A stretch of DNA of 33,549 nt from an uncultured Gammaproteobacteria bacterium (GCA_964428465.1 CAYRYG010000003.1:1-33549); one strand, 5' to 3'; shown: positions 3,119 through 33,492, numbered from the stretch's first letter. Notes: generated by a model not told the origin, from the letters alone. Numbers and translations are program-made.

Positions 3119-3185
3119 GCGATGCCTCCGCCCGGACTTCACCATATTTTTTACCTCTTGTCAATGGATTTGCTATACTCGATGC

Positions 3186-3647
3186 ATGGACGCGGAGCTC
3201 ACCATGTTCGACCGCCTCAAGGCCTTCTGCTGGGCCAAATTCGCCCCGTTGTTTCCGTATGTCCGCGACGGCCTCCTGTGGCTCGGGATCATTCGCCACA
3301 ACATCCGCCAAAACTTCCTCATCGGCTACCTCGCCCCGGGCCGTACGGTCCAGGGGCTCATCGAGCACCTGAAACAGCACGGCTTCGACCACCACCATGT
3401 CGCCTGGATCGACCGCGACGAGGTCGTGGGCCTGCGCAAGCTCGTCAACTTCCACTGGCAATACCACCTGCGCGTGTTCGTGGACCGGGAAATCCGCGTC
3501 CACTTCGAGTACACGCCGGAAAGCCGTCCCATCGACCATATGCTCGAGGCGCACTTCGAGCATCGCCGCGAGGACTTTCTGCGATTTTTGGACGACTGGA
3601 TCGTCGAAACTGAGATGTCCGCCAGAGGCGGATCAGCCTTCGGCTAA
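3186..3647 (+). CDS. Hypothetical protein
   Basis: Plausible globular ORF (WQYHLRVFVDREIRVHFEYTPE); TGcTATACT lies 6 nt before ATG 3186. Confidence 0.75.
   Translation: MDAELTMFDRLKAFCWAKFAPLFPYVRDGLLWLGIIRHNIRQNFLIGYLAPGRTVQGLIEHLKQHGFDHHHVAWIDRDEVVGLRKLVNFHWQYHLRVFVDREIRVHFEYTPESRPIDHMLEAHFEHRREDFLRFLDDWIVETEMSARGGSAFG
3618..3645. repeat. Double mini-hairpin repeat (TCCGCC-AGA-GGCGGA, AGCC-TTC-GGCT) encoding the SARGGSAFG tail of the upstream CDS
   Basis: Both inverted repeats are visible; the peptide resembles a REP-like repeat I recall from CPR genomes. Confidence 0.6.
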
Positions 3648-3668
3648 AAAAAGAGCCGCAGGGGCTCT
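3646..3668 (-). terminator. Intrinsic terminator of gene 3667-4215
   Basis: Minus strand AGAGCC-loop-GGCTCT followed by a T-run, overlapping the stop codon. Confidence 0.7.
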
Positions 3669-4215
3669 AGAGCGGGCGCGGGACGACGAACACGTCCGTC
3701 CCGGGCTGAAGCTGGATCGTGACCTCGCTGCTCTGGAACAGGAAGGTGGCCGTCGCCGTCGCGAACTTGAACCGGGCGTGCGCGGGACCGCCGAACTCCT
3801 CCCTGACCCTCACGGTCCCGCGGACGACCGTGCCGCCGTGCAGGAGGTCGATCACGTCCCCGGTGGCGAGGATCGTCTCGCCCGCCAGGAACTGGACCGT
3901 CTCGGCGCGGTAGGCCAGCGGGACCGCCAGGCGGAACGACTCGGCGTCCCCCTCGTCGGTCACGAGCGCGCACTCGAAGCCGTTCGCGAGCGGGACCACC
4001 ACGCGGCCGATGCCGCGGTAGGTGATCTCCACGTGGTAGCGGATGTCGACCTTCGGCTGCCCGGGCCGTAGCCCGCCGAAATCCCTCGTACGCAGCACGT
4101 GCCGCTCCTCGGTCCCGTCGGGGAACCGGATCCACGCCGGCATCCCGCCCACGAGCGGGATATCGCCGTGGCAGTGGTGGCCACGCCCGTCGAACGTCGT
4201 CGTTCTGAAATCCAT
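3667..4215 (-). CDS. Hypothetical beta-rich protein
   Basis: ORF with its own promoter, a purine-rich SD-like site (GAGGAGAAGG) and a terminator. Confidence 0.7.
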   Translation of the reverse strand: MDFRTTTFDGRGHHCHGDIPLVGGMPAWIRFPDGTEERHVLRTRDFGGLRPGQPKVDIRYHVEITYRGIGRVVVPLANGFECALVTDEGDAESFRLAVPLAYRAETVQFLAGETILATGDVIDLLHGGTVVRGTVRVREEFGGPAHARFKFATATATFLFQSSEVTIQLQPGTDVFVVPRPL

Positions 4216-4238: not shown

Positions 4239-4267
4239 ACGCTACAGCGATCATCCTGCCTTGTCAA
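4239..4267 (-). promoter_or_regulatory. Sigma70-type promoter TTGACA-17-TAGCGT
   Basis: -35 at 4267-4262 overlaps the upstream gene's stop; 17-bp spacer; -10 at 4244-4239. Confidence 0.65.
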
Positions 4268-12757: not shown

Positions 12758-12854
12758 AAAAGGTTTGACAGGTCAGACAGGAATGACACGTTTGACAGGA
12801 TACGATGGGTATCCTGTCTGACCTGTCTGACCTGCAAAACCTGTCAAACCTTTT
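12758..12854. repeat. Palindromic element with 4 x 9-bp units per arm, between convergent genes
   Basis: AAAAGG-TTTGACAGG-TCAGACAGG-AATGACACG-TTTGACAGG-ATAC-GATGG-GTAT-CCTGTCTGA-CCTGTCTGA-CCTGCAAAA-CCTGTCAAA-CCTTTT; may also act as a bidirectional terminator. Confidence 0.85.
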
Positions 12855-13638
12855 ATCGTTTCGCCCTCAGCAGCCCGGCGATCGTCCGATCGACCGCCTG
12901 GAGCGGCTCGATGGCGATCTCGTCCTGGATGTGCGCGCGGTCATGGTACTGGAACGGGTTGTCGAGGTCGCGGATCAACATGATCATGTAGATGAGCAGG
13001 TACGCGATACCCACCGTGATCATGATCGCCTCGGGAAGCGTCCCCATGTCGACGAACAGCATCGAGAAGATCACGACGGCCGTGAACAGCTCGGACACGG
13101 CGTACGCCGGGGCCACCACCGTCGCCTCGCGGATATTGCGCATGCGCACCAGCATGCGTCGGACGGACGCCACCTCCTGCTTCAGGCGCACCAGGAAGTT
13201 CGCCTGCGTGTGCGGCTCGAGCGTTGAGAACAGCGGCGCGTATCCGCGCAGGACCGCCACGACGTCGCGCGTGCGCTCCTTGTGATGGAACCACCGTACC
13301 ATCGACGCGATCGTTGTCCGCGTGTGTTCCAGGCACGCGACCGCGGCCTTCCGCGCGGCCGGCTTCTGACGCAGGACGTCGCACTCCTCGACGATCGAGT
13401 CGAGCGCAGCGGACATCTCCCCCGGGATCTTCTCGGCCTCCTTGTAATCCGGCATCGCGCCGGACAGGAGGAAACCGAGCAGGAACACGTCCGCGGCAAC
13501 GAGCGTCGAGAAATACGTGTTGAGCTCCATCACCTCGAGGCCGTGCTCCTGCGCGTACCATTTCGTCGCCCCGAGCAGCAGCGCGAACGGAAGGACGCGG
13601 ATGGTGAGGTGATGCTTTGAAAGAAACGTGCGAACCAT
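12853..13638 (-). CDS. Membrane protein, bestrophin-like/DUF4239-like
   Basis: Two TM pairs flanking a helical domain; C-terminal LIRDLDNPF. Confidence 0.65.
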   Translation of the reverse strand: MVRTFLSKHHLTIRVLPFALLLGATKWYAQEHGLEVMELNTYFSTLVAADVFLLGFLLSGAMPDYKEAEKIPGEMSAALDSIVEECDVLRQKPAARKAAVACLEHTRTTIASMVRWFHHKERTRDVVAVLRGYAPLFSTLEPHTQANFLVRLKQEVASVRRMLVRMRNIREATVVAPAYAVSELFTAVVIFSMLFVDMGTLPEAIMITVGIAYLLIYMIMLIRDLDNPFQYHDRAHIQDEIAIEPLQAVDRTIAGLLRAKR

Positions 13639-13657
13639 ATAGCATACATTCTATCAT

Positions 13658-14578
13658 ATGGCGCTCTGGACCAAACTTCTCCGGTGGTACGACACGCACG
13701 GGCGCGACCTGCCGTGGCGCAAGACGCGCGACCCGTACCGGATTTTGGTCTCCGAGATCATGCTGCAGCAGACGCAGGTGTCGCGCGGGCTGGTGTTCTA
13801 CGACCGATGGCTGGCGCAGTTCCCGGACTGGAAGGCGCTCGCCGGGGCGTCGAACGCGGACGTCATCCGCGCCTGGGCCGGGCTCGGGTACAACCGCCGC
13901 GCGCTGATGCTGCGGGATATCGCGCGACACGTGGTCGAAAGGGATAAGGGAAAAGGAGCAAGGAGCAAGGGCTTGGTTCCGGGGACGGAAGCAGAATGGA
14001 TGGAGATGAAGGGGGTTGGGCCGTATACGGCGGCGGCGATCTCGGCGTTTGCACTACGGCAGAGAACGCTTCCCGTGGACACCAACATCCGCCGCGCGCT
14101 CGGCCGCCTGCTCTTCGGGGTCCCCTACCCCCAGCCGGCGATCGACGACAGGATCCGCCGCGACATCGACCGTATCCTCCCCAAGCGTGGCCGGTTCTTT
14201 GACGTCCCGCAGGCATTGTTCGATCTCGCGACGATGCACTGCATGAAAGAGCCGACGTGCGCGACGTGTCCGATGCGCTCGGCCTGTTCGGCCGCACCAA
14301 AGTTCTTGTCGGGCAATGTACGCGTGCCGAAACAAATGGTGAAGAAGGCCGTCGAAACCAGGCATCGCGACAAGAAATTTCCCGACCGTATTTATCGCGG
14401 GCGCATCCTGAAGCTGGCGCGGGAATCGGGACGAATCCCGATTGCCGACATTGGCCCGAAGATCGATGCGTCGTATGTCGTGTCGCGTGACGCCGAGTGG
14501 GTGACGGCAATGGTCGGGCGGCTGGAAAAAGATGGGATGATCCGGCGCGTCGGCAGCGCGATCGTCCTCGCGCAATAA
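13658..14578 (+). CDS. mutY: A/G-specific adenine glycosylase, short form
   Basis: RDLPWR, SEIMLQQTQV, WAGLGYNRRA, HhH GVGPYTA, VDTN and a 4-Cys Fe-S motif; the C-terminal NUDIX-like domain appears absent. Confidence 0.9.
   Translation: MALWTKLLRWYDTHGRDLPWRKTRDPYRILVSEIMLQQTQVSRGLVFYDRWLAQFPDWKALAGASNADVIRAWAGLGYNRRALMLRDIARHVVERDKGKGARSKGLVPGTEAEWMEMKGVGPYTAAAISAFALRQRTLPVDTNIRRALGRLLFGVPYPQPAIDDRIRRDIDRILPKRGRFFDVPQALFDLATMHCMKEPTCATCPMRSACSAAPKFLSGNVRVPKQMVKKAVETRHRDKKFPDRIYRGRILKLARESGRIPIADIGPKIDASYVVSRDAEWVTAMVGRLEKDGMIRRVGSAIVLAQ
13939..13973 (+). repeat. In-frame 5 x 7-bp tandem repeat within mutY
   Basis: AAGGGAT AAGGGAA AAGGAGC AAGGAGC AAGGGCT. Confidence 0.65.
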
Positions 14579-16076: not shown

Positions 16077-16895
16077 ATGCCCGAACCCGAAGAGCCAGGC
16101 GAGGTGAAGCCCACGTGGGAATACACCAGGCTGGCGCGCCGTCATGCGAGCGATTCGCCGTACGGCTCCGCGGGAGGCGGGCCGAACGGCAGTTACCGGG
16201 GCCGACACATCATCGGCCGCAACTCCCGAGTCCTGGGCGGCATCTCCATGGTGGCCGGCCATCCCATCCTGATCGTGGTGTCGGAGGAGGACACGCACCT
16301 TCCCGCCGTCTACCTGGAGCTGACGGAGCGCCTGGCCAGCCGCAACGTGCGACGCATCCCGGACCTGCTCGCGGACGTGCACGCGCTCGTCCGCGAGAAG
16401 CTGCGGTACGTCCGCGACCTCAACAAGACCGTCCGGCGCGAGAAGAGCCCGGGCGGCGCGGAGGTGAAGCTCCCGCTCGCGTTCTACGTCGCGCGAGGCG
16501 AGGGCGTCTGCTGGCAGCAGGGCCTGCTCGCCGCGTATCTCGTCGAGAAGCTCATCGACGACGACGTGATCGGTGGATCCGTCTCCACCGACCGCAACAT
16601 GAAGCGGGACGTGCTGAAGGAATGGGCGGACTTCTCGACCGGCGAGTACGTTGGGCATCAGTGGACACGCTACACGGCGCCGGACGGGACAGTGTACGTC
16701 GTGGACCCGGCGCAGGACTACTGCGGCCGCCTCGTCGATGTCCCGCGCGACCGGCGCGGCTTCTGGCGCGACTACTTCCGGCCCGAGGACCCGATCCCCG
16801 CCCCTTCCCCGAAGGTTCCCTCGTTCTTCGACGAGCTCGACATGCTCGTCGCGGCCGGCATCGTGGCCGCGCTCGTCTGGAACCTCGTCACCTGA
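16077..16895 (+). CDS. Transglutaminase/papain-like Cys-His-Asp protein with a C-terminal TM anchor
   Basis: GVCWQQGLLAAYL, GHQW and VVDPAQ motifs; GGAGG SD; hydrophobic C-terminal tail. Confidence 0.7.
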   Translation: MPEPEEPGEVKPTWEYTRLARRHASDSPYGSAGGGPNGSYRGRHIIGRNSRVLGGISMVAGHPILIVVSEEDTHLPAVYLELTERLASRNVRRIPDLLADVHALVREKLRYVRDLNKTVRREKSPGGAEVKLPLAFYVARGEGVCWQQGLLAAYLVEKLIDDDVIGGSVSTDRNMKRDVLKEWADFSTGEYVGHQWTRYTAPDGTVYVVDPAQDYCGRLVDVPRDRRGFWRDYFRPEDPIPAPSPKVPSFFDELDMLVAAGIVAALVWNLVT

Positions 16896-16915
16896 CCCTT
16901 CATGGGGTCTTTTTC
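16893..16915 (+). terminator. Intrinsic terminator overlapping the stop codon
   Basis: TGACCCTTCATGGGGTCTTTTTC. Confidence 0.75.
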
Positions 16916-19200: not shown

Positions 19201-19569
19201 TTAACGGCTTGCCGCGAACTGCATGGACGGGCTCGCGAACTCAAGGACGTGCCGGACCTCCGGGCGTTCCGTAAACGAGACGAACTCGACGGGCGCCGTT
19301 TGGCGGCTGATGGGCGAGGAACCGCGCGCCTGTTCGAGCTCGACGGTGAGCACGCTCACCGCGAACACGGCGACCACCGCCCCTCCCGCCACCACGGACG
19401 TGGTGTACATAAAGAAGCGCGTCCAGACGACATAAAAGCGGTTCCGCTCGAAGAGCGTGGAATTCAGGAGGGCCCGGCGCAGCGCGTAGCGGTGCGAGGG
19501 ATCTTCCCGGACGTCAGGCTCCGCCCGTTCCAAGAGCCGTTCGAGTTGTGCGAGCATCAGTTCGTTCAT
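19201..19569 (-). CDS. Small single-TM protein, putative anti-sigma factor
   Basis: Overlaps the 3' end of the ECF sigma gene; helical N-terminus (PSHRYALRRALLNS) followed by one TM helix. Confidence 0.6.
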   Translation of the reverse strand: MNELMLAQLERLLERAEPDVREDPSHRYALRRALLNSTLFERNRFYVVWTRFFMYTTSVVAGGAVVAVFAVSVLTVELEQARGSSPISRQTAPVEFVSFTERPEVRHVLEFASPSMQFAASR

Positions 19570-20146
19570 AGCCGCCCTCGGCGGGTTCTTCCGCCATGAG
19601 GACCTGTAATTTCTTAAGGGCGCGGTGGATGTGGGACTTAACCGTCCCTTCCTTCATCTTCACCGCCGCGGCGATCTCCGGCACGGTCAGCTTGGAGAAG
19701 AACCGCATGCTCAATATGTTCTGCTGCTTCTGGTTGAGCTTCGCGAGCAACCCGCGCAGCCGCTCAACCTGCCGCCTCACGCCGAGCGCGTCCTCGTCCG
19801 CCACCATCTCGATGTCCGGCCGGTAATCGTCGTTCGCGGCGAGTTCCGGCGCCTCGTCGATAGTGACCGACAGATAGCGCTTGCGACTGCGGAAATACGT
19901 CCCGATCTGGGCCACCGCGATGGCGAACAGCCAGGACTTGAACGGCTTTCCGCGCGCCTCGTACCGGCGGATATTCTTCAGCGCCTGGAAAAAGGTCTCG
20001 CTGCACAGGTCCTTCGCCACTTCGACGTTGTGCGTGCGCGAGAGCAGGAACCCGAAGACGGGCTGGTAGTAGCGATCGTACAACCGCCCGAACGCCTCGG
20101 GGTCCGTCTTGGATTGTTCGATGAGCGTCACCTCCTCGTTTTGCAT
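19514..20146 (-). CDS. ECF-family RNA polymerase sigma factor
   Basis: AFGRLYDRY, DLCSETF, FKSWLFAIA (region 2) and EIAAAVKMKEGTVKSHIHRALKKL (region 4). Confidence 0.92.
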   Translation of the reverse strand: MQNEEVTLIEQSKTDPEAFGRLYDRYYQPVFGFLLSRTHNVEVAKDLCSETFFQALKNIRRYEARGKPFKSWLFAIAVAQIGTYFRSRKRYLSVTIDEAPELAANDDYRPDIEMVADEDALGVRRQVERLRGLLAKLNQKQQNILSMRFFSKLTVPEIAAAVKMKEGTVKSHIHRALKKLQVLMAEEPAEGGYERTDARTTRTALGTGGA

Positions 20147-20250: not shown

Positions 20251-20329
20251 ACCTCGTCCTCCTTCCCGCCGACCTTTACGAAAGTATATCGCCATCATAC
20301 CGCGACCGTTGCAGGCGGTCACGGGAAAA

Positions 20330-20352
20330 GAAAAAAGACCCGGGAAGGGTCA
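20330..20352 (-). terminator. Intrinsic terminator overlapping the stop codon
   Basis: TGACCCTTCCCGGGTCTTTTTTC. Confidence 0.75.
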
Positions 20353-20727
20353 GGGGAACGGGATCTCGGCGAAGACGTCCTGGCGCTGCCAGGGGGTTCT
20401 CACGATGCCTCCGCCGGGGTTCGGGCCGTGCAAGTCGCCTTCCACGAACCGATGGTTGGAGAAGATCAGCCCGATCGTCGCGCCGTCCCGGTAGCCGGGC
20501 AGCACCCCCTCGAACTCCAGCGTCGGGCGCACGCCGCCGGGCTTCGGGCCGAAGGTCTTGAAGGTCCCGACCTTGGTCTCGCCGGCCCAGATCTCGTACG
20601 CCTTCGCGTACTCCATCCCGTAGCTCCAGTCGAGGACGACCGGCGGCCGCACCTCCACCGTCAGCCCCGGAAAAAGGCCGCAGAGGAAGGCGTAGAAGCC
20701 GTCGGCGCCCGGAAGAACGTTGCTCAT
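20350..20727 (-). CDS. Hypothetical protein
   Basis: 125-aa ORF with its own promoter, GAGGGA SD-like site and terminator. Confidence 0.75.
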   Translation of the reverse strand: MSNVLPGADGFYAFLCGLFPGLTVEVRPPVVLDWSYGMEYAKAYEIWAGETKVGTFKTFGPKPGGVRPTLEFEGVLPGYRDGATIGLIFSNHRFVEGDLHGPNPGGGIVRTPWQRQDVFAEIPFP

Positions 20728-20786
20728 GGTGTCCCTCGTAAGAACATGCGGCTTTCCCAGCCGCGGGGCTCAATTCAAGAGCTGTC

Positions 20787-20815
20787 AGGATATCAAAAAT
20801 CCAGCCATTTGTCAA
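20787..20815 (-). promoter_or_regulatory. Repeated sigma70 promoter, copy 1
   Basis: TTGACA AATGGCTGGATTTTTGA TATCCT. Confidence 0.8.
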
Positions 20816-20830
20816 CGGCCGGACGCGTAT

Positions 20831-20854
20831 GAAAAAAGACCCCTTGCGGGATCA
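20831..20854 (-). terminator. Intrinsic terminator overlapping the stop codon
   Basis: TGATCCCGCAAGGGGTCTTTTTTC. Confidence 0.75.
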
Positions 20855-21190
20855 GAAGCGGGGCGTGCAGCCCTTGGCGTTCCAGCCGGTGCCGCAGCAC
20901 ACGGTGAGGTTCACCGGCTTCTCCTGGACGTTCTTGGCCGTGACCTTGAACGCGATGCCGTCGCTGTCGCTGCAGCCGCTGCGGGCGACGTTCCAGGTGT
21001 CGGTGTCCGTGACGCGGGCGTCGGTCATCCCGAGCGCCTCGACCACCTCGATGGCCTTGGACGCGTCGGGCCGGCCGCAGCCGCCGACGTTGCCGACCGC
21101 GATGGCCGCGAGGATGCCGATGATGGCGATGACGATGACCAGCTCGACGAGCGAGAACCCGCGCCGCGCGCGGGAGGTGGATGCGTGCAT
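20852..21190 (-). CDS. Small type IV prepilin-like protein with a Cys-rich C-terminal domain
   Basis: RRG|FSLVELVIVIAIIGILAAIAV class III signal (G-1, F+1, E+5); GGAGG SD. Confidence 0.85.
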   Translation of the reverse strand: MHASTSRARRGFSLVELVIVIAIIGILAAIAVGNVGGCGRPDASKAIEVVEALGMTDARVTDTDTWNVARSGCSDSDGIAFKVTAKNVQEKPVNLTVCCGTGWNAKGCTPRF

Positions 21191-21216
21191 TCCGAGTGCC
21201 TCCGTTTGGCGTCTCG

Positions 21217-21245
21217 ACGCTATCAAAAAACCGGCCGTTTGTCAA
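21217..21245 (-). promoter_or_regulatory. Repeated sigma70 promoter, copy 2
   Basis: TTGACA AACGGCCGGTTTTTTGA TAGCGT. Confidence 0.8.
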
Positions 21246-21271
21246 CCCTTGCGGGGCGGACAAACGGCCGG
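21225..21271 (-). terminator. Terminator of the ABC transporter gene, overlapping promoter copy 2
   Basis: 13-bp perfect inverted repeat CCGGCCGTTTGTC / GACAAACGGCCGG followed by T6 on the minus strand. Confidence 0.75.
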
Positions 21272-21276
21272 AAGCG

Positions 21277-23028
21277 TCACAGGACCGCGTTCTCGGCCTG
21301 GGCCTCCACCATGCGGCGAAATGCCCCGGCCTCGGCGCGGACCTGGGCGTACGGTCCCTGCTGGACCACGCGGCCCCGGTCGATCACCACCACGTAGTCC
21401 GCGCGGCGGATGGTGGAGAGTCGGTGGGCCACGATGACGACCGTGCGGGTCCCCTTCAGGCGGTCGACGGCCTCGGCCATGATCTGCGCCTCGGTCTCGC
21501 CGTCGAGGTGCGACGTCGGCTCGTCGAGCAGCAGCAGGCGCGGGTCGCGCATGAGCGCCCGGGCGATGACCAGGCGCTGGGCCTGGCCGCCGGAGAGCCG
21601 CACGCCGTTTTCCCCCACGCGGGTCTCGTACCCGTCGGGAAGCGAGAGGATGAACCCGTGCGCGTCCGCAAGCCTCGCGCAGCGCTCCACGTCCTCCTGG
21701 GAGGCGCCGGGCATGCCGAACGCGATGTTGCCGCGCACGGTGTCGTTGAAGACGCCCATGGTCTGTGAGACCACGCCGACCTGTCCGAGGTACTCGGTCG
21801 GATCCAGCTCGCGCAGATCCTTCCCGTCGATGAGGATGCGGCCCGCGTGCGGATCGTATCCGCGCAACAGGAGCGTCATGAGCGTGGTCTTGCCCGCGCC
21901 CGAGGGACCCACGACCGCGACCGTCTTGCCGGCCGGAACGTAGAAGCTCACGCCTTGCACGGTCCCGGCCGTGTCCGGATAGGCGAACGAGACTCCCTCG
22001 AACGCCACGGACCCGGCCATGCGGCCGAGCGGCAGCGGGTGCTCGGGCGGACGCACGTCGGGCTGGATCTCCAGGAGTTCGAACAGCTTCTCCGCGTCGG
22101 GACGAAACCGCTCGGCCATGTTGATCCCCTGCAGCGCGTTCTGCATGGAACCGACGAGCCGGTTGGTCACGCCGAACAGCAGGGTGACCGTGCCGAGCGT
22201 AACGTCGCCGCGCACCATGAGCCACACGGCGAGCGTCAGGACGGACCCGGCGACCGCATGGCGCAGGAACGTCTGCGCGCTCCCGAGTCCGAAGACTCGC
22301 CGCGCCAGCGTCTCCGTGAGGCCGAGCAGGCGTTCGTTGCGGCGCAAAATCTCGCCATGCACCGCCGCCTCGCACGCGTTCGCCTTGACGGCCTGGATGT
22401 TCCGCAGCACGTCGTTCTTGTAGACGTCGGCGGCGCGGTCGCTGTCGCGGAACTCCTTGCGGACGCCGCGCAGTTTCCGCTGGGCCCACACGCCGTACCA
22501 CACCGTCACCGCGCTGCCGGCAATCATGACGACGCCCGGGACGGGAACGATGACGACGGTCCAGAGCGCGAACACCGCGACCTGGCACACGGCCGGGGCG
22601 GCCTGGGTCAGCGCGATCCAGACGATCTCCTGGGCGCCGCTGAGTCCCTGCCCGACCACGTTGAGCTTCTCGGCCGTGTCCCTGCGGGTATGGAACCCGA
22701 GCGACAGCCGGAGCAGGTGGAGCGCCGTGTCGCCCGAAAGCCGGTAGGACACGCGCGTCTGCAGGCGGTCCGACAGGTAGTAGGACGCCTGCGACCCGAG
22801 GTCCGCGAGGACCGTTGACCCGACGAGCGCCGCGACGGCGAACGCCAGGGCGCGCATCGAGATGTCGGACGACCCGCGCATCCACCCCTCGACCGCGTCG
22901 AAGAATGCCTTCTGCGCGAGCATGGGGACGAACCCGACGACCTGCGCGGCGACGGTGAGGACGAGGGCGACTCCGAAGATCCCCTTGAACGGCCACACCA
23001 GCCGGAGGACGTTCTTCCAGAAGTCCAC
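21277..23028 (-). CDS. ABC exporter, fused permease + ATPase (MsbA/Atm1-like)
   Basis: N-terminal TM domain, GPSGAGKT, LSGGQ, LLDEPT and AHRLSTI; GTG start preceded by AAGGAG. Confidence 0.92.
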   Translation of the reverse strand: MDFWKNVLRLVWPFKGIFGVALVLTVAAQVVGFVPMLAQKAFFDAVEGWMRGSSDISMRALAFAVAALVGSTVLADLGSQASYYLSDRLQTRVSYRLSGDTALHLLRLSLGFHTRRDTAEKLNVVGQGLSGAQEIVWIALTQAAPAVCQVAVFALWTVVIVPVPGVVMIAGSAVTVWYGVWAQRKLRGVRKEFRDSDRAADVYKNDVLRNIQAVKANACEAAVHGEILRRNERLLGLTETLARRVFGLGSAQTFLRHAVAGSVLTLAVWLMVRGDVTLGTVTLLFGVTNRLVGSMQNALQGINMAERFRPDAEKLFELLEIQPDVRPPEHPLPLGRMAGSVAFEGVSFAYPDTAGTVQGVSFYVPAGKTVAVVGPSGAGKTTLMTLLLRGYDPHAGRILIDGKDLRELDPTEYLGQVGVVSQTMGVFNDTVRGNIAFGMPGASQEDVERCARLADAHGFILSLPDGYETRVGENGVRLSGGQAQRLVIARALMRDPRLLLLDEPTSHLDGETEAQIMAEAVDRLKGTRTVVIVAHRLSTIRRADYVVVIDRGRVVQQGPYAQVRAEAGAFRRMVEAQAENAVL

Positions 23029-23084
23029 GTTTTTCTCCTTGGACAGAGCGAACGAACGCCGAGCGACCTTCGCTCGGAGGGCGA

Positions 23085-23113
23085 AGGATAGCAAAAAATC
23101 GGCCGTTTGTCAA
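23085..23113 (-). promoter_or_regulatory. Repeated sigma70 promoter, copy 3
   Basis: TTGACA AACGGCCGATTTTTTGC TATCCT. Confidence 0.8.
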
Positions 23114-23147
23114 CGGATGGCCGCATTAGTGCTACACTGTGTCGCAT

Positions 23148-24548
23148 ATGATCAGCACTGCGCATCGACGCCCGAATCCGCCGCGCGAAACGGAACGGGA
23201 GTCGCTCGGGTCCGCCAGGGCGGATGCCCTGCGGAAAGACATGGACGCGCGCGACAAAGCCGCGACAGCGACCACCCGGGCCCGCGCTGCCGTAAAAACC
23301 GTTGAGCAGGTGCTCCCGATTATCCTGGAGGGAACCCTTCCCGAGGGGGACGTCCTATCCCAGACGATTCTGGAGATAAGCGAAGGCGTCTCCGCACAGG
23401 AGCCCGGAACGACCCCCGAACTGATCGCGCGTGAAATCGACGCGTGGCTCGAACAGCATCCGGACACTCGGAAACGGCTCGAACGGACGATCGGGGCATC
23501 GTTTGGCATTCGATTCGACCGCCTCGTCGCGTCCCTCCCGCTTCCGGAAACGGACGAAGAAATCGAGGAGGCGTGCGACCGGCTCGGCGAGACCCTCCTG
23601 CGCGACCACGTGCGAAAAAGCTGGCTGCGCGAACGCGTGAAGGATCAGCGTCGCGTCTGGAAGGCCGAAGTCCGGGATGACAGAAAGAATTGGGCACTTC
23701 TGGAAAAAATGCTTCCGGAGCGGGACGTCGCGACCATCCGCGAGATCACGGGGGCCGACGAGATCACGTTCCGTTCCCGCGCGGGTGATCTTGCGTCCAT
23801 CGCCGAGCACCTATCCGACCGTGTCCGGCACGCGATCGGGGTCGTCATGATGAATGCGGAGAAACGCCGCATTCACGACGCGGTTTCGAACGCCGCCCGG
23901 TCGTACGACCCGATCCGTACGGCCCGGAGCCGCGTTTCCGGGATCATGCGTGAAATCGCCGTCCTCAGGGAAGCGATCCCGCATCGGACGCGAGAGTTGG
24001 CCTCGGCGCGCGAGGAACGCCAACGTACCATCGCGGACGAGCGGACCAGACTGGCAGAGAAGCTGAAGTCGTTACGAAAACCGATGGGGGCGGCCATCGC
24101 GAAGGCGGCGGCGCTGGAACGGAAGGCCGCGTCGATTCCGGAAGCGCGCCGCGAGACATTCGAGGCAGAATTGGCAGCCGCTTCGTCGATCGCGGCCGAA
24201 TACGCGCGACAATATGACGAGTCGTTGTCTCCCAAGGTACCCGAGCACGACGCGCGCGTCTCTCGCATCGAGCAGGAAGCAAACGAACTTGGGATACAAC
24301 TGGCGGGCAAGGTCAAGCAAGCGGAAGAGGCGGGCAAGGAAGCAGCGCGGATGACGATGGAACATTTCGACGGGGTCCGTGCCGCCATCGCCGGCCTTCC
24401 GTCCGCGGCCCACAAAGACAGACAGGCGGGTCACCGGGCATTCACGGAACGCCTGACCTTCCTTGGCGTCAAGCCGTCGCAGGACGACTGGGAGCAGTAT
24501 CTCCGCTCGTTCGAGGCGGCAGTTGGCGGAGAAATCAAGACGACATAA
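23148..24548 (+). CDS. Hypothetical alpha-helical/coiled-coil protein
   Basis: A/E/R/K-rich ORF; TGcTACACT 9 nt before the ATG; followed by a terminator. Confidence 0.7.
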   Translation: MISTAHRRPNPPRETERESLGSARADALRKDMDARDKAATATTRARAAVKTVEQVLPIILEGTLPEGDVLSQTILEISEGVSAQEPGTTPELIAREIDAWLEQHPDTRKRLERTIGASFGIRFDRLVASLPLPETDEEIEEACDRLGETLLRDHVRKSWLRERVKDQRRVWKAEVRDDRKNWALLEKMLPERDVATIREITGADEITFRSRAGDLASIAEHLSDRVRHAIGVVMMNAEKRRIHDAVSNAARSYDPIRTARSRVSGIMREIAVLREAIPHRTRELASAREERQRTIADERTRLAEKLKSLRKPMGAAIAKAAALERKAASIPEARRETFEAELAAASSIAAEYARQYDESLSPKVPEHDARVSRIEQEANELGIQLAGKVKQAEEAGKEAARMTMEHFDGVRAAIAGLPSAAHKDRQAGHRAFTERLTFLGVKPSQDDWEQYLRSFEAAVGGEIKTT

Positions 24549-24556
24549 ACGCGCGC

Positions 24557-24592
24557 AAAAACCGGCCCGGGCGAACGCGCGGGCCGGTTTTT
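24557..24592. terminator. Bidirectional intrinsic terminator
   Basis: AAAAACCGGCCCG / CGGGCCGGTTTTT between convergent genes. Confidence 0.85.
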
Positions 24593-24596
24593 CATC

Positions 24597-25844
24597 TTAG
24601 TAATCCCTCAGCTTCTCGATCATCGGGTGCGACTGGATCTTTTCGAGCGCCTTGGCCTCGATTTGGCGGATGCGCTCGCGCGTGACGTCGAATTCCTTGC
24701 CCACCTCCTCGAGCGTGTGGCTCACCCCGTCGGTGAGGCCGAAGCGCATCTCGAGGATTTTCTGCTCGCGCGGGGACAAGTCCTTCATCGCGTTGTTCAC
24801 GTAGTCGCGCAGGAGTTCCCGGGCGGCGGCGCGGTCCGGCGAGATCGTCTTGATGTCCTCGATGAAGTCCTCGAGCTTGGAATCCTCGTCGTCGTCGCCG
24901 ACCGACGTCTCGAGCGACACGGTGTCCTGCGAGATGCGGATGATGTGCTGCACCTTCTCGAGCGGCTCGTTCATTTCCGCCGCGATTTCCTCCGGCAGCG
25001 GCTCGCGGCCGAGGTCCTGGATGAGGCGTCGCTCCACCTGCATGAACCGGTTGATGGTTTCCACCATGTGCACCGGGATGCGGATGGTGCGGCTCTGGTC
25101 GGCGAGCGCGCGGGTGATGGCCTGGCGGATCCACCAGGTCGCGTACGTGGAGAACTTGTACCCCTTGCGGTACTCGAACTTCTTCACGGCGCGGAACAGG
25201 CCGATGTTCCCCTCCTGGATGAGGTCGAGGAGCGACAGCTGCTTGCCCACGAACTTCTTGGCGATGGACACCACGAGGCGCAGGTTGGCCTCGATGATGC
25301 GCCGCTCGGCCTCCTTGTCGTTGCGTTCCTTGCGCTTGGCGAGCGCGACTTCCTCCTCGCCGTTCAGGAGCGGGATCTTCCCGATCTCGCGCAGATACAT
25401 CTGGATGGAATCCTGCGACAGCTCCGGAACCTCGTTCGATTTCTTCGACGCGACGCGCGTGGTGCGGATCTTGTCGTACACGTCGGTGCGTTCCTTCTCG
25501 CGGCCGAGAATCCCCTCCTTCATCTCGATGAAGTGGATGCCGGCGCGGTCGAGCCGGTCGAGGAACTCGCGGAACACGTCCACGTAGTCCTCGACGTCCG
25601 CGAACGTAAACAACACCTCGTTCTCCGTGATGAACCCGCGCTGCTGTCCCTTCTTGATGAGACGGTCGATGATTTCCGGGGTCGGCGGGGGCGTGCGGAC
25701 GTACCGAGCCTTCGGTGGGCTGACATGCTTGACGGGTTTGACATGTTTGACGGGTTTCGCAGAACGAGCGACCTGTCTGACCTGTTTAACCTGTCTGACC
25801 TGTCTGACCTTCGCGCCCTTCTTGACGATTTTCTTCTTGACCAT
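24597..25844 (-). CDS. rpoD: Primary RNA polymerase sigma factor
   Basis: [59 protein letters not shown] and TRERIRQIE; immediately downstream of dnaG. Confidence 0.97.
25719..25807. repeat. In-frame copy of the 9-mer palindromic element in the rpoD 5' region
   Basis: GCTGACATG CTTGACGGG TTTGACATG TTTGACGGG ... CCTGTCTGA CCTGTTTAA CCTGTCTGA CCTGTCTGA; encodes [24 protein letters not shown]. Confidence 0.8.
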
Positions 25845-32267: not shown

Positions 32268-33464
32268 ATGTTCGAAATTCACGTCGAGGACCGTACCGTC
32301 CAAACGGGCATGGTCCCGGTGAGCTGGTGTGTCAGCCGGGCGTTGCTCGCGCGGCTCGCCGAGCTCGGGATCAAGGACCCGCACGTGCTGCTGGTGGCCG
32401 CCCCCGCCGGGGACCGCTACCACCCCGGCAAGGAGACGCGCAAGCTCGTCCCGCTCACGGACGGCATGGGCTACGTCGAGTTCCGCACCGACGGCCCCAA
32501 CCGGGTGTTCGCCGTGATCATGTTCTGGTGGGGCGGCATCCGCGGAGTGGATGACTACCTGTTCGCGCGGGAGGGCGGCGTCTGGAAGACGAACCTGCTC
32601 ACGACCGACGGCTCCGCGCTCTCGGATCGCCTCCACAAGGCGTACTACCACGGAGACTCCGCGTGCGGCTGGGGGATCACGGAACTGCCCGAGGCAGACA
32701 TCCCGAGCAACGACGCGACCAAGGGCTGGCGCGCGGCGTCCTCGACCCTCGACGTGATCGTCCCCGCGGGCGTGTTCGCCAAGCCGCCGCCCGCGTGGGA
32801 GACGGCGTGGGTGAACCACTGGTTCCGCAACGCCCCGATCGACGAGTGCGACTACCGCAAGCGCCGCCTCTGGGCGTACTCCGTGCAGCCGCCGGTCATG
32901 CTCGTGAACTGGCTGATCCGCCTCGCGGTGACGCTCTTCGCCCTCCTGGCCGGCTTCAAGCAGGTCAACTGGCAGCCGGTCTTCCACCTGCTGTCGACCG
33001 GCTTCGAGCAGGTCGTGGCGAGCTTCGAGAACGGGAACTACTTCTGGCCGAGGAGCTGGGGGAAGAACCCCGTCGGCTTCCTGGCCCGGTGCAGCCTGCC
33101 GCTCTTCAGCCCGCTGTCGCTGCTCGCGATCGCCGGCATCGCCTCGCTCGCGGAGAAGAGCCCATTCGCGACGGTCTTCGCCAAAACCCTGATCGGCCTC
33201 GCCCTCGGGATCCCCGCGATCGTGGCGGTCGCGTTCGGCATCGCGACGGCGATCGCGCTGGCGGGCCACGCGGCCGGCCGGTACTCCGAACGGAAGGCCG
33301 GGCGGCACGCCGACTACCTCGACCCCGAGACGGTCGACTTCCTGGCCTGCGACGCGCAGGGCGGCACGCGCCGCACCATCGGGAACGTCCCGTGGCGCCG
33401 CCGGTCCGTGCGGCTCATCTTCCAGGCCACCAAGGCCCAGGTCTGCCGCCCCTTCGCCCGCTGA
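32268..33464 (+). CDS. Hypothetical membrane protein
   Basis: 398-aa ORF with SD, a soluble N-terminal half, about 3 TM segments and a downstream terminator. Confidence 0.8.
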   Translation: MFEIHVEDRTVQTGMVPVSWCVSRALLARLAELGIKDPHVLLVAAPAGDRYHPGKETRKLVPLTDGMGYVEFRTDGPNRVFAVIMFWWGGIRGVDDYLFAREGGVWKTNLLTTDGSALSDRLHKAYYHGDSACGWGITELPEADIPSNDATKGWRAASSTLDVIVPAGVFAKPPPAWETAWVNHWFRNAPIDECDYRKRRLWAYSVQPPVMLVNWLIRLAVTLFALLAGFKQVNWQPVFHLLSTGFEQVVASFENGNYFWPRSWGKNPVGFLARCSLPLFSPLSLLAIAGIASLAEKSPFATVFAKTLIGLALGIPAIVAVAFGIATAIALAGHAAGRYSERKAGRHADYLDPETVDFLACDAQGGTRRTIGNVPWRRRSVRLIFQATKAQVCRPFAR

Positions 33465-33471
33465 CCCCCTC

Positions 33472-33492
33472 ACCGCCCCACGGGCGGTTTTT
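33472..33492 (+). terminator. Intrinsic terminator
   Basis: ACCGCCC-CAC-GGGCGGT followed by Ts. Confidence 0.75.

Follow-up and report, generated by a model that had tools for sequence, protein, structure and literature searches.

Putative fused terminator-promoter modules between rpoD and an ECF sigma factor gene, written in a promoter grammar common to an order of Patescibacteria

In a genome recorded as that of an uncultured gammaproteobacterium, three unrelated genes (for an ABC exporter, a prepilin-type protein, and an orphan protein of 125 amino acids [aa]) lie in one orientation between rpoD, the gene for the primary sigma factor, and a gene for an extracytoplasmic function (ECF)-type sigma factor, and each is preceded by a nearly identical promoter-like motif. 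We analyzed the whole stretch of 33,549 nucleotides (nt) that holds this locus (GCA_964428465.1 CAYRYG010000003.1:1-33549; referred to as the window). Each motif and its 5' flank probably form a module in which an intrinsic terminator and a promoter are fused, and the promoter part follows a grammar common to an order of Patescibacteria (candidate phyla radiation [CPR]).

Under this explanation, the motif would be a promoter of the housekeeping sigma factor, composed of TTGACA, a 17-bp spacer, TAnnnT, and a TG at -15/-14, with the order's own preferences for AA(A) past the -35, a G+C-rich middle of the spacer, and a T-run ahead of the TG. The 5' flank of the -35 would pair with the first 7 to 11 bases of the spacer, leaving a GACA loop closed by TT/AA, and the T-run of the spacer would double as the U-tract of a terminator. 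About 45 bp would thus end the transcript of the upstream gene and restart transcription for the next one, and the copies would be near-identical because the spacer is constrained twice, as promoter and as terminator. The CGGCCG stem of the three copies would have been inherited from a terminator that follows rpoD in congeners and copied within the locus as genes were added. The motifs, the hairpins and their covariation, the link to upstream gene ends, the order-wide grammar, and the variable gene content are documented below; terminator activity, promoter firing, and the origin of the copies are what we infer from them.

The window is contig 3 of its genome (G000; 1.25 Mb, 65% G+C, rated 99.6% complete), which we compared with eight congeners (G001 to G008); order-wide counts were made on 41 genomes, with the reversed pattern as a control. 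All 40 relatives sampled across the order have genomes of 0.7 to 1.3 Mb. The best named matches of the G000 rpoD product are from Patescibacteria/CPR metagenome-assembled genomes (61 to 69% identity), the exception being one record labelled Gammaproteobacteria (69%). DNA of the locus is present in groundwater metagenomes.

Three copies of the motif in the window

The 30-nt pattern GTTGACA-17 bp-TAnnnT has exactly three matches in the window, all on the minus strand (23085-23114, 21217-21246, and 20787-20816), and no match in 100 shuffles; the shorter pattern TTGACA-17-TAnnnT has six sites, against 0.02 expected. An earlier note on this DNA had drawn attention to three co-oriented, nonhomologous genes behind the motif and to spacers that match that of the second copy at 14/17 and 15/17. 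Both observations hold, and the pairwise spacer identities are 15/17 for copies 1 and 2, 14/17 for copies 2 and 3, and 12/17 for copies 1 and 3. The three modules and their hairpins are as follows.

23085 to 23123, minus strand: module 1; -35 TTGACA at 23113-23108, spacer AACGGCCGATTTTTTGC, -10 TATCCT at 23090-23085
23100 to 23123, minus strand: hairpin of module 1, with T6 at 23092-23097; apparently decayed, with a broken 8-bp stem, -9.1 kcal/mol
21217 to 21271, minus strand: module 2; -35 at 21245-21240, in the loop and the 3' arm; -10 TAGCGT at 21222-21217
21231 to 21271, minus strand: hairpin of module 2, with T6 at 21225-21230; 13-bp stem CCGGCCGTTTGTC...GACAAACGGCCGG, z -3.2, -32.7 kcal/mol
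20787 to 20824, minus strand: module 3; -35 at 20815-20810, -10 TATCCT at 20792-20787
20799 to 20824, minus strand: hairpin of module 3, then T5 (20794-20798); 11-bp stem GTCCGGCCGTT-GACA-AATGGCTGGAT, -17.0 kcal/mol

Pairing between the 5' flank of the -35 and the initial part of the spacer, seen in each of the three copies, places TTGACA at the tip of a hairpin with the T-run directly next to it, and a terminator scan flagged all three modules. The CGGCCG letters that the spacers have in common belong to the 3' arm of this hairpin. The stem of module 3 includes two G-U pairs, so that its pairing is maintained in the RNA of the transcribed strand only. The hairpin of module 2 begins 6 nt past the stop codon of the ABC exporter gene and is the sole terminator ahead of the pilin gene. 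Module 1 has a much weaker hairpin than its orthologues, which follow rpoD in G003, G004, and G007 (-9.1 versus -16 to -19 kcal/mol), as would fit decay following its separation from rpoD.

The -10 hexamers of all three modules retain the T-A...T letters and the TG at -15/-14; that of modules 1 and 3, TATCCT, agrees with TATAAT at 4/6 positions and passes a promoter scan based on an Escherichia coli-style consensus. The starts of the genes lie 55, 26, and 59 nt past the -10 of modules 1, 2, and 3, respectively, behind the Shine-Dalgarno (SD) sequences AAGGAG (ABC exporter), GGAGG (pilin), and GAGGGA (125-aa orphan), and a hairpin with a T-run lies past each of the three genes (21233-21247/21231-21271, 20838-20853, and 20337-20351). 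A leader hairpin, an SD, and a terminator had all been ascribed to each gene; the SD and the terminator are present for all three, but only copies 1 and 3 have an evident leader hairpin.

Within the loop of module 2 (21247-21258), there is a mini-hairpin with the 10-mer CCCGCAAGGG, and an identical 10-mer forms the pilin terminator (20840-20851) 400 nt downstream. The corresponding modules of G003 and G004 have a simple GACA loop, at which G000 carries a 19-nt insertion. Together, the shared 10-mer and the insertion look like a trace of exchange between hairpins.

An order-wide promoter grammar

The pattern TTGACA-N17-TANNNT occurs 127 times in G000, accounting for 39% of all 327 TTGACA hexamers of the genome. 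With spacers of N16, N17, or N18 there are 139 sites, of which 126 lie outside called genes and 124 have a co-oriented gene downstream (105 within 150 nt). The spacers of the 127 sites are biased toward A after the -35 (70 and 56 of the 127), toward G+C in the middle, and toward T at positions ~11 to 15, and 82 of these sites have a G at -14. Across the order, the pattern was found in all 41 genomes, with 22 to 190 sites each versus 0 to 20 for the reversed control. Its T-run form, TTGACAAA-N7-TTTT-N-TG-N-TANNNT, was found in 40 of the 41 genomes (1 to 18 sites each; 16 in G000) and in no control.

Unlinked sites elsewhere in G000 match the window trio in likeness: spacers agree at 16/17 positions in one pair and at 15/17 in several, and pairs at 14/17 or better amount to 18 of 8001. 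One site in another genus differs from the spacer of copy 1 at a single position. Core genes and RNAs are also served: T-run promoters precede the gene for L35 and a tRNA gene (100 nt downstream of C2:28074), and other perfect -35/-10 promoters precede the genes for L27, S16, L10, FtsZ, SecE, and the DEAD-box helicase of the window. By these comparisons, the spacer letters common to the trio are mostly lineage-wide promoter grammar and not specific to the locus.

A second class of spacers occurs with perfect -35 and -10 hexamers, in which an A-run replaces the T's and is followed by TCGGG before the -10 (e.g., ATTCGGAAAAAATCGGG-TACGAT). Examples are at C4:10795(-), C89:881(-), C8:25899(+), C4:14552(+), and C59:5442(-), and one of them precedes a paralogue of the window pilin gene. 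Such spacers suggest that the promoter as such includes an A/T tract, at about -23 to -18, which can lie on either strand.

Another type of gene start was recognized in about 164 genes, in which TAnnnT lies 6 to 10 nt ahead of the start codon, with a peak at 9 nt. Of these genes, 72 have a TG at -15/-14 and just 4 have a perfect -35, and they appear to form a near-leaderless class with an extended -10 (TGnTAnnnT) and a weak -35; window examples are at 23130-23150, 3150-3188, and 12853-13660. In a further 40 genes TAnnnT abuts the called start, which may reflect wrong start calls. The genome would accordingly have two promoter classes, one with a perfect -35, a leader, and an SD and the other with an extended -10 and next to no leader. 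The contrast between orphans with leaders and leaderless core genes, as first proposed, is consistent with the existence of the near-leaderless class, but core genes are not confined to it.

Hairpins around the -35 and upstream gene ends

An unbroken stem of at least 7 bp around the -35 was found in 14 of 34 T-run promoters, compared with a mean of 2.8 and a maximum of 7 when flanks were swapped between sites (30 permutations). There was no such excess among 83 other promoters (11 versus 9.3 by flank swap). These counts superseded a measure based on minimum-free-energy (MFE) folds (at least 5 pairs spanning the -35), which was uninformative (96 of 139 sites versus 95.3 with shuffled flanks).

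The stems vary in sequence and retain their pairing. When pairs were counted by a script from the loop outward in 24 modules (16 from G000 and 8 from congeners), 22 different 5' arms and several Watson-Crick pair types per stem position were obtained, and the loop always lay inside the -35 (GACA in 8 modules, GACAA in 5, and TGAC in 4). Changes between orthologous modules are compensatory: the arms of the module after the gene for HU are ACGGCCG/CGGCCGT in G000 and GCGACCG/CGGTCGC in G007, and those of the module after the AhpC gene are CCGC/GCGG in G000 and G005 and ACGC/GCGT in G007. RNAalifold found no consensus structure for 22 modules; MAFFT had aligned them without gaps on TTGACA, and the register of the hairpin shifts by 1 to 3 nt.

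Hairpins are also linked to the ends of upstream genes. A co-oriented gene ends within 60 nt of 12 of 14 T-run sites with a hairpin but of only 4 of 21 sites without one (Fisher P = 1.4e-4), with module 2, whose long loop was missed by the stem function, counted among those 4. The RNA-binding domain of Rho (PF07497) was not found in the 99.6%-complete G000, whereas 9 of 14 control genomes have a match to it.

If these sites were strong promoters only, the likeness of the copies would follow from the consensus and the complementarity of the flanks would be incidental, with no role in termination. Several observations speak for this alternative and thereby weigh against a fused element. The spacers of about 20 of 35 T-run promoters have the A-run and T-run without a flanking hairpin, so that the T-run belongs in part to the promoter as such. 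Only 12 nt separate module 3 from another complete terminator upstream of it. Module 1 stands opposite a divergent gene and has no upstream co-oriented gene in G000. Because of these contexts, the hairpins of modules 1 and 3 are unneeded as terminators at their present sites. The promoter half has its own weak point in the -10 of module 2 (TAGCGT), which agrees with TATAAT at 3/6 positions and fails the E. coli-style scan. Two properties of the data also limit the main explanation, namely, that genes were predicted with a custom, crude codon-bias caller that mis-set some starts and that the compared genomes are kin and nonindependent. Even so, the excess of stems over the permutations, the compensatory changes between orthologues, and the association of hairpins with upstream gene ends all argue against promoters only, and we consider that alternative unlikely.

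The same covariation bears on the proposal, also made in the earlier note, that the three genes form a regulon in which a DNA-binding regulator reads the spacer (AAYGGCYGR plus the T-run) as an operator. Spacers that are identical at 12 to 15 of 17 positions, an A-run/G+C/T-run symmetry that a dimer could read, and the adjoining ECF sigma factor gene would all suit such a regulator. However, the conserved letters recur before unrelated genes in 40 of the 41 genomes; the variable middle of the spacer pairs with the upstream flank and undergoes compensatory changes that a sequence-specific operator would forbid; the G-U pairs of copy 3 maintain pairing in RNA and not a palindrome in DNA; and the 29 genes downstream of T-run promoters share no family or theme. 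We therefore abandoned the regulon, which is highly improbable. Control of the three genes by the ECF sigma factor was likewise dropped: the ECF operon has a conserved promoter of its own, and TTGACA/TAnnnT is unlike the promoters that ECF-type sigma factors use.

Another alternative is a dispersed palindromic repeat, akin to repetitive extragenic palindromes or miniature inverted-repeat transposable elements, that contains promoter-like hexamers by chance. Its core CCGGCCGTTGACAAACGGCCGG is indeed a near-perfect palindrome of 22 bp with several copies. Yet the 14-mer core, with up to one mismatch, has 8 copies in G000 and 0 to 6 in relatives and is not high copy, as a fuzzy scan with the 30-mer also showed; the stems differ in 22 of 24 modules; the sites are oriented with genes, 124 of the 139 being followed by a co-oriented gene (within 150 nt for 105); and no terminal repeats or target duplications were seen beyond the hairpin. 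Such a repeat is hardly credible on this evidence, and a fused terminator and promoter would be the better account of the modules.

Genes behind the promoters

As a proxy for orphan genes, and a proxy only, we used the lack of a Pfam family at an E value of <=1e-4. By this measure, 22 of 26 genes behind T-run promoters are orphans (23 of 29 with the three window genes included), compared with 44 of 76 genes behind other perfect -35/-10 promoters and 31 of 100 randomly chosen genes that have no such promoter in the 250 nt around them (100 of 150 drawn, including operon-internal genes). Relative to the random genes, the enrichment is significant for both classes (Fisher P = 4e-6 for the T-run class and 4e-4 for the other perfect promoters).

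Three further orphans of the window had been credited with the same layout (3667-4215, 16077-16895, and 32268-33464), and TTGACA is in place at 4267, 16030, and 32206, with terminators at 3652-3668, 16894-16909, and 33472-33488. The description of these units as standardized expression modules is thus supported, in that every gene comes with a consensus promoter, an SD, and a terminator of its own. This layout recurs genome-wide, with an enrichment at genes for which no Pfam family was found.

No gene was called in four regions that follow T-run promoters, and a search of them against Rfam returned one tRNA only. In addition, a stretch of 3 kb on another contig (C27:4269-7272; L027:2070-5072) has no open frame of >179 aa and no positive coding score, and matches no Rfam family at threshold; a pair of perfect T-run promoters in divergent orientation (C27:4750, minus strand, and 4855, plus strand) flanks it. 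It could represent an unfamiliar long RNA or decayed genes.

Gene content of the slot in congeners

The gene for MgsA, a DUF218 gene, a gene for an anti-sigma-like protein, the ECF sigma factor gene, and rpoD are syntenic in G000, G003, G004, G005, and G007, except that no DUF218 gene was called at its position in G007. The content of the slot between rpoD and the ECF sigma factor gene varies among these five genomes, as listed in order from rpoD.

G005: a Clp-like gene on the opposite strand; no module
G007: rpoD, module, pilin-like gene
G003 and G004: rpoD, module, ABC exporter gene, module, 251/258-aa gene
G000: rpoD, bidirectional terminator, 469-aa orphan gene (on the other strand), module 1, ABC exporter gene, module 2, pilin gene, terminator, module 3, 125-aa orphan gene

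The same module follows the rpoD stop codon in G003, G004, and G007, and all of the slot module copies compared have an identical or almost identical core, TTGACAAACGGCCGG(T/C)TTTTTG. The 3' end of rpoD in G006 has a promoter-less version, GCCGGCCG-ttgatgac-CGGCCGGC, between an A-run and a T-run and with no -10. Because the same stem follows rpoD in congeners, G006 included, the CGGCCG stem can be regarded as an inherited rpoD terminator, and the additional modules of the slot are most simply explained as copies of it.

Between G000 and G003/G004, homology ends just past the -10 of module 2 and resumes at the ECF promoter; between G000 and G007, it resumes at the terminator ahead of the ECF promoter, despite different preceding genes. 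The difference between G007 and G000 consists of the ABC exporter gene plus one module, bounded by direct repeats of the module, and an indel of this composition has the shape that would be expected from recombination between modules.

These patterns raise the possibility that the modules, beyond ending and starting transcripts, also serve as substrates on which genes are gained and lost. Two modules would undergo homologous recombination, with deletion or circularization of the gene between them, and a circle of module plus gene could reenter at any resident module, yielding module-gene-module. Lineage-specific genes would in this way enter, leave, and swap at the 3' ends of core genes via modules of ~40 bp, and newcomers would be expressed and insulated at once. 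This extension finds support in the slot, whose content differs in all five genomes with 1 to 3 module copies at the boundaries (none in G005), in the exact [ABC + one module] difference between direct repeats, and in the end of G003/G004 homology right past the -10 of module 2, with resumption at the conserved terminator/ECF promoter. The trio also shares the CGGCCG stem although 22 of 24 modules differ in their arms, which points to copying and not to convergence, and the excess of genes without Pfam families behind T-run promoters (23 of 29 versus 31 of 100 random genes) would be expected as well.

Five further module junctions of G000, located after the genes for HU, AhpC, an AstE-like protein, HolA, and a 219-aa protein, were examined for the same behavior. 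The module is retained, if at all, solely in G005 and/or G007 (in none at the AstE-like junction). At the 219-aa junction, G005 has a promoter without a hairpin. The downstream gene of G000 was recovered by tblastn at the AhpC junction only (in G005), and a similar 5' untranslated region (UTR) and N terminus were seen by eye at the HolA junction of G005. More distant congeners (G003, G004, and G006 and, where compared, G001, G002, and G008; 2 to 7 per junction) mostly have plain, unrelated terminators. For a sixth upstream gene, five congeners were searched and gave no match.

Other evidence speaks against recombination at modules. No weighty junction, deletion form, or circle was seen in the contigs of two groundwater runs from one study, which show the reference arrangement only, although contigs hide rare forms; two listed joints have sides of 25 nt and belong to a contig of a co-occurring relative, so that they are evidence neither for nor against. 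No cassette is found at two loci: the genes for the 125-aa orphan, the 469-aa orphan, and the ABC exporter have no close paralogue in G000, and the slot genes of G003, G004, G005, and G007 match only distant G000 paralogues. The modules have only ~30 to 45 bp of homology in common, G000 holds just 8 copies of the 14-mer core, and no recombinase is nearby among the 31 window proteins. Finally, lineage-specific genes are variable by definition, and any gene that is inserted as a self-contained unit has to bring a promoter and a terminator, so that there may be no mechanism behind the association. On balance, a role of the modules in gene gain and loss is a tentative reading, and we would sooner doubt than assert it.

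In the earlier note, gain or shuffling of genes by recombination at shared boundaries had been set against a generic spacer combined with stable gene content. The slot is variable across congeners, which fits such shuffling, but no recombination product was seen in the contigs and no recombinase in the window, and the idea stays conjectural. The spacer proved to be largely generic consensus that serves core genes too, but gene content is not stable across relatives. The absence of a visible integrase was corroborated, as a Pfam search confined to the 31 proteins of the window found no integrase or transposase family.

Other features of the slot and its neighbors

The remaining features of the locus, from rpoD to the ECF sigma factor gene, are as follows.

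24597 to 25844, minus strand: rpoD, primary sigma factor, left anchor of the slot (Pfam Sigma70 r1.1, r1.2, r2, r3, and r4)
24557 to 24592, no strand: bidirectional terminator between the convergent rpoD and 469-aa orphan genes; A5-hairpin-T5, aaaaa-CCGGCCCG-loop-CGGGCCGG-ttttt
23139 to 24548, plus strand: 469-aa orphan gene (orphan469); GTG at 23139, no Pfam match
21277 to 23029, minus strand: ABC exporter with fused membrane and ATPase domains (PF00664 and PF00005); GTG start, SD AAGGAG
20852 to 21190, minus strand: prepilin-type protein of 112 aa (PF07963, N_methyl)
20832 to 20853, minus strand: pilin terminator, GATCCCgcaaGGGGTC plus T6
20350 to 20727, minus strand: 125-aa orphan gene (orphan125); no Pfam match
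20331 to 20351, minus strand: terminator past orphan125, GACCCttcccGGGTC plus T6; conserved with G007, where the preceding gene is different
20294 to 20322, minus strand: promoter of the ECF sigma factor operon, GTGACC-17-TATGAT; homology with all congeners resumes here
19514 to 20146, minus strand: ECF-type sigma factor, right anchor of the slot (PF04542 and PF08281)

The chromosomal context in the window (rpoD, dnaG, greA, and MgsA) is syntenic in congeners. The rpoD product is 86 to 89% identical in seven of the eight congeners and 82% identical over a contig-truncated copy in G001, and the ECF sigma factor is 75 to 82% identical in G003, G004, G005, and G007. Among eight rpoD 3' ends compared, the A5-hairpin-T5 terminator occurs in G000 only.

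The orphan469 gene is probably near-leaderless and translated from the ATG at 23148, 9 nt ahead of which lies TGcTACACT (23130-23138). It has one distant homologue (41% identity) among 5.8 billion proteins; it is absent from the syntenic slots of G003, G004, G005, and G007 and lies between rpoD and module 1 in G000 only. The orphan125 protein has likewise one distant homologue in that collection (46% identity), and its gene was not found in the slots of the same four congeners. The start of the ABC exporter gene is most likely the GTG at 23029, and not 23094 or 23113, because of the position of the SD and the alignment with orthologues. The exporter is 54% identical to its positional orthologues in G003 and G004, while neighboring proteins are 75 to 91% identical; it is absent from the slots of G005 and G007 and was not found with the G000 query in the remaining congeners. 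Paralogues of the pilin gene are on contigs C4, C70, and C75 of G000, and the likeness of the pilin to the pilin-like protein of the G007 slot is limited to the N-terminal 30 aa.

The 251/258-aa slot gene of the congeners (L061 in G003 and L060 in G004) encodes an HEAGH motif, recognized by eye, and shares 26 to 30% identity with FtsH-like genes of G000; it seems to encode a stand-alone M41-type peptidase domain. The Clp-like AAA gene in the slot of G005 has four G000 paralogues of 47 to 56% identity (C56:3263-4093, C81, C7, and C95), and one such paralogue is located immediately upstream of the HU gene, beside another terminator-promoter module. In groundwater runs X1 and X3, contigs of a congener match the locus only at the rpoD 3' end and the module, and one loose end among them resembles the 5' UTR of the G003/G004 slot gene; therefore, related species with different slot contents co-occur.

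The T-runs of terminators are very often followed by CAT (TTTTTTCAT), as at 20826-20837 past the pilin gene and in many intergenic regions of G000. On the opposite strand this tail reads ATGAAAAAA, which could seed false gene calls.

Comparison with known systems

The closest described analogue is the promoter-early stem-loop (PeSL) of T4-type phages. According to the available text of two reports (Arbiol et al. 2010, PMC2839356; Comeau et al. 2014, PMC4122927), a PeSL combines a near-consensus sigma-70 promoter with a stem-loop terminator that may overlap the -35, lies mostly upstream of ORFans in hyperplastic regions, and recombines with other PeSLs, which shuffles genes and yields mini-circles. 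As far as that text goes, the modules described here resemble PeSLs in their near-perfect TTGACA-N17 promoter (with TATAAT in PeSLs), their stem-loop terminator, an SD and start codon at the 3' end, their location mostly ahead of ORFans in variable regions, and indels between close relatives that are bounded by the elements. They differ in lying on a cellular CPR chromosome, beside rpoD, dnaG, and the genes for HU, AhpC, and HolA; in having one preferred register, which puts the -35 inside the loop and makes the T-run part of the spacer; and in their diverse stems, as opposed to poly-G/poly-C stems, and lower copy number (~15 to 35 per 1.25 Mb). Mini-circles are on record for PeSLs, whereas the modules are known from sequence alone. 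That this CPR lineage uses fused modules as a recombinase-free cassette system, as a cellular counterpart of phage PeSLs, is a possibility to which we give rather less than even weight.

All of the defining sequence features of ordinary sigma-70 extended -10 (TGn) promoters and of Rho-independent terminators are present in the modules. What appears to set the modules apart is the superimposition of the two in a fixed register and a spacer with an order-wide A-run/T-run pattern. A single short sequence that combines the functions of a terminator and an extended-TGn sigma-70 promoter is described in the available text of a preprint (Bao and Forster 2026, bioRxiv 10.64898/2026.02.12.705533), where, in contrast to the modules, the terminators are hairpin-less class II terminators of T7 RNA polymerase, assayed in E. 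coli constructs. Our literature search, which was limited in coverage, found nothing on CPR/Patescibacteria transcription or promoter grammar and nothing specific on overlapping terminator/promoter elements in bacterial chromosomes.

As a rule, integron cassettes lack a promoter and have attC at their end. They resemble the slot as tandem, unrelated single genes in one orientation at a variable location, but no IntI was found among the 31 window proteins, every gene here has its own promoter and terminator, and the repeated element lies 5' of the gene. An integron finds no support, given that the window has no detectable integrase and that each gene has its own promoter.

Significance

The analysis provides an explicit promoter grammar that is common to an order of CPR bacteria, distinguishes two promoter classes, and points to a systematic fusion of terminators and promoters in an organism in which no Rho domain was found. 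These results would be directly usable for annotating genomes of this kind and for designing expression parts for their few cultivable relatives. If modules do mediate gene gain and loss, very small genomes would turn over many orphan genes without mobile-element machinery, and a mechanism that the available phage reports describe so far only in T4-type phages would be extended to a cellular lineage.

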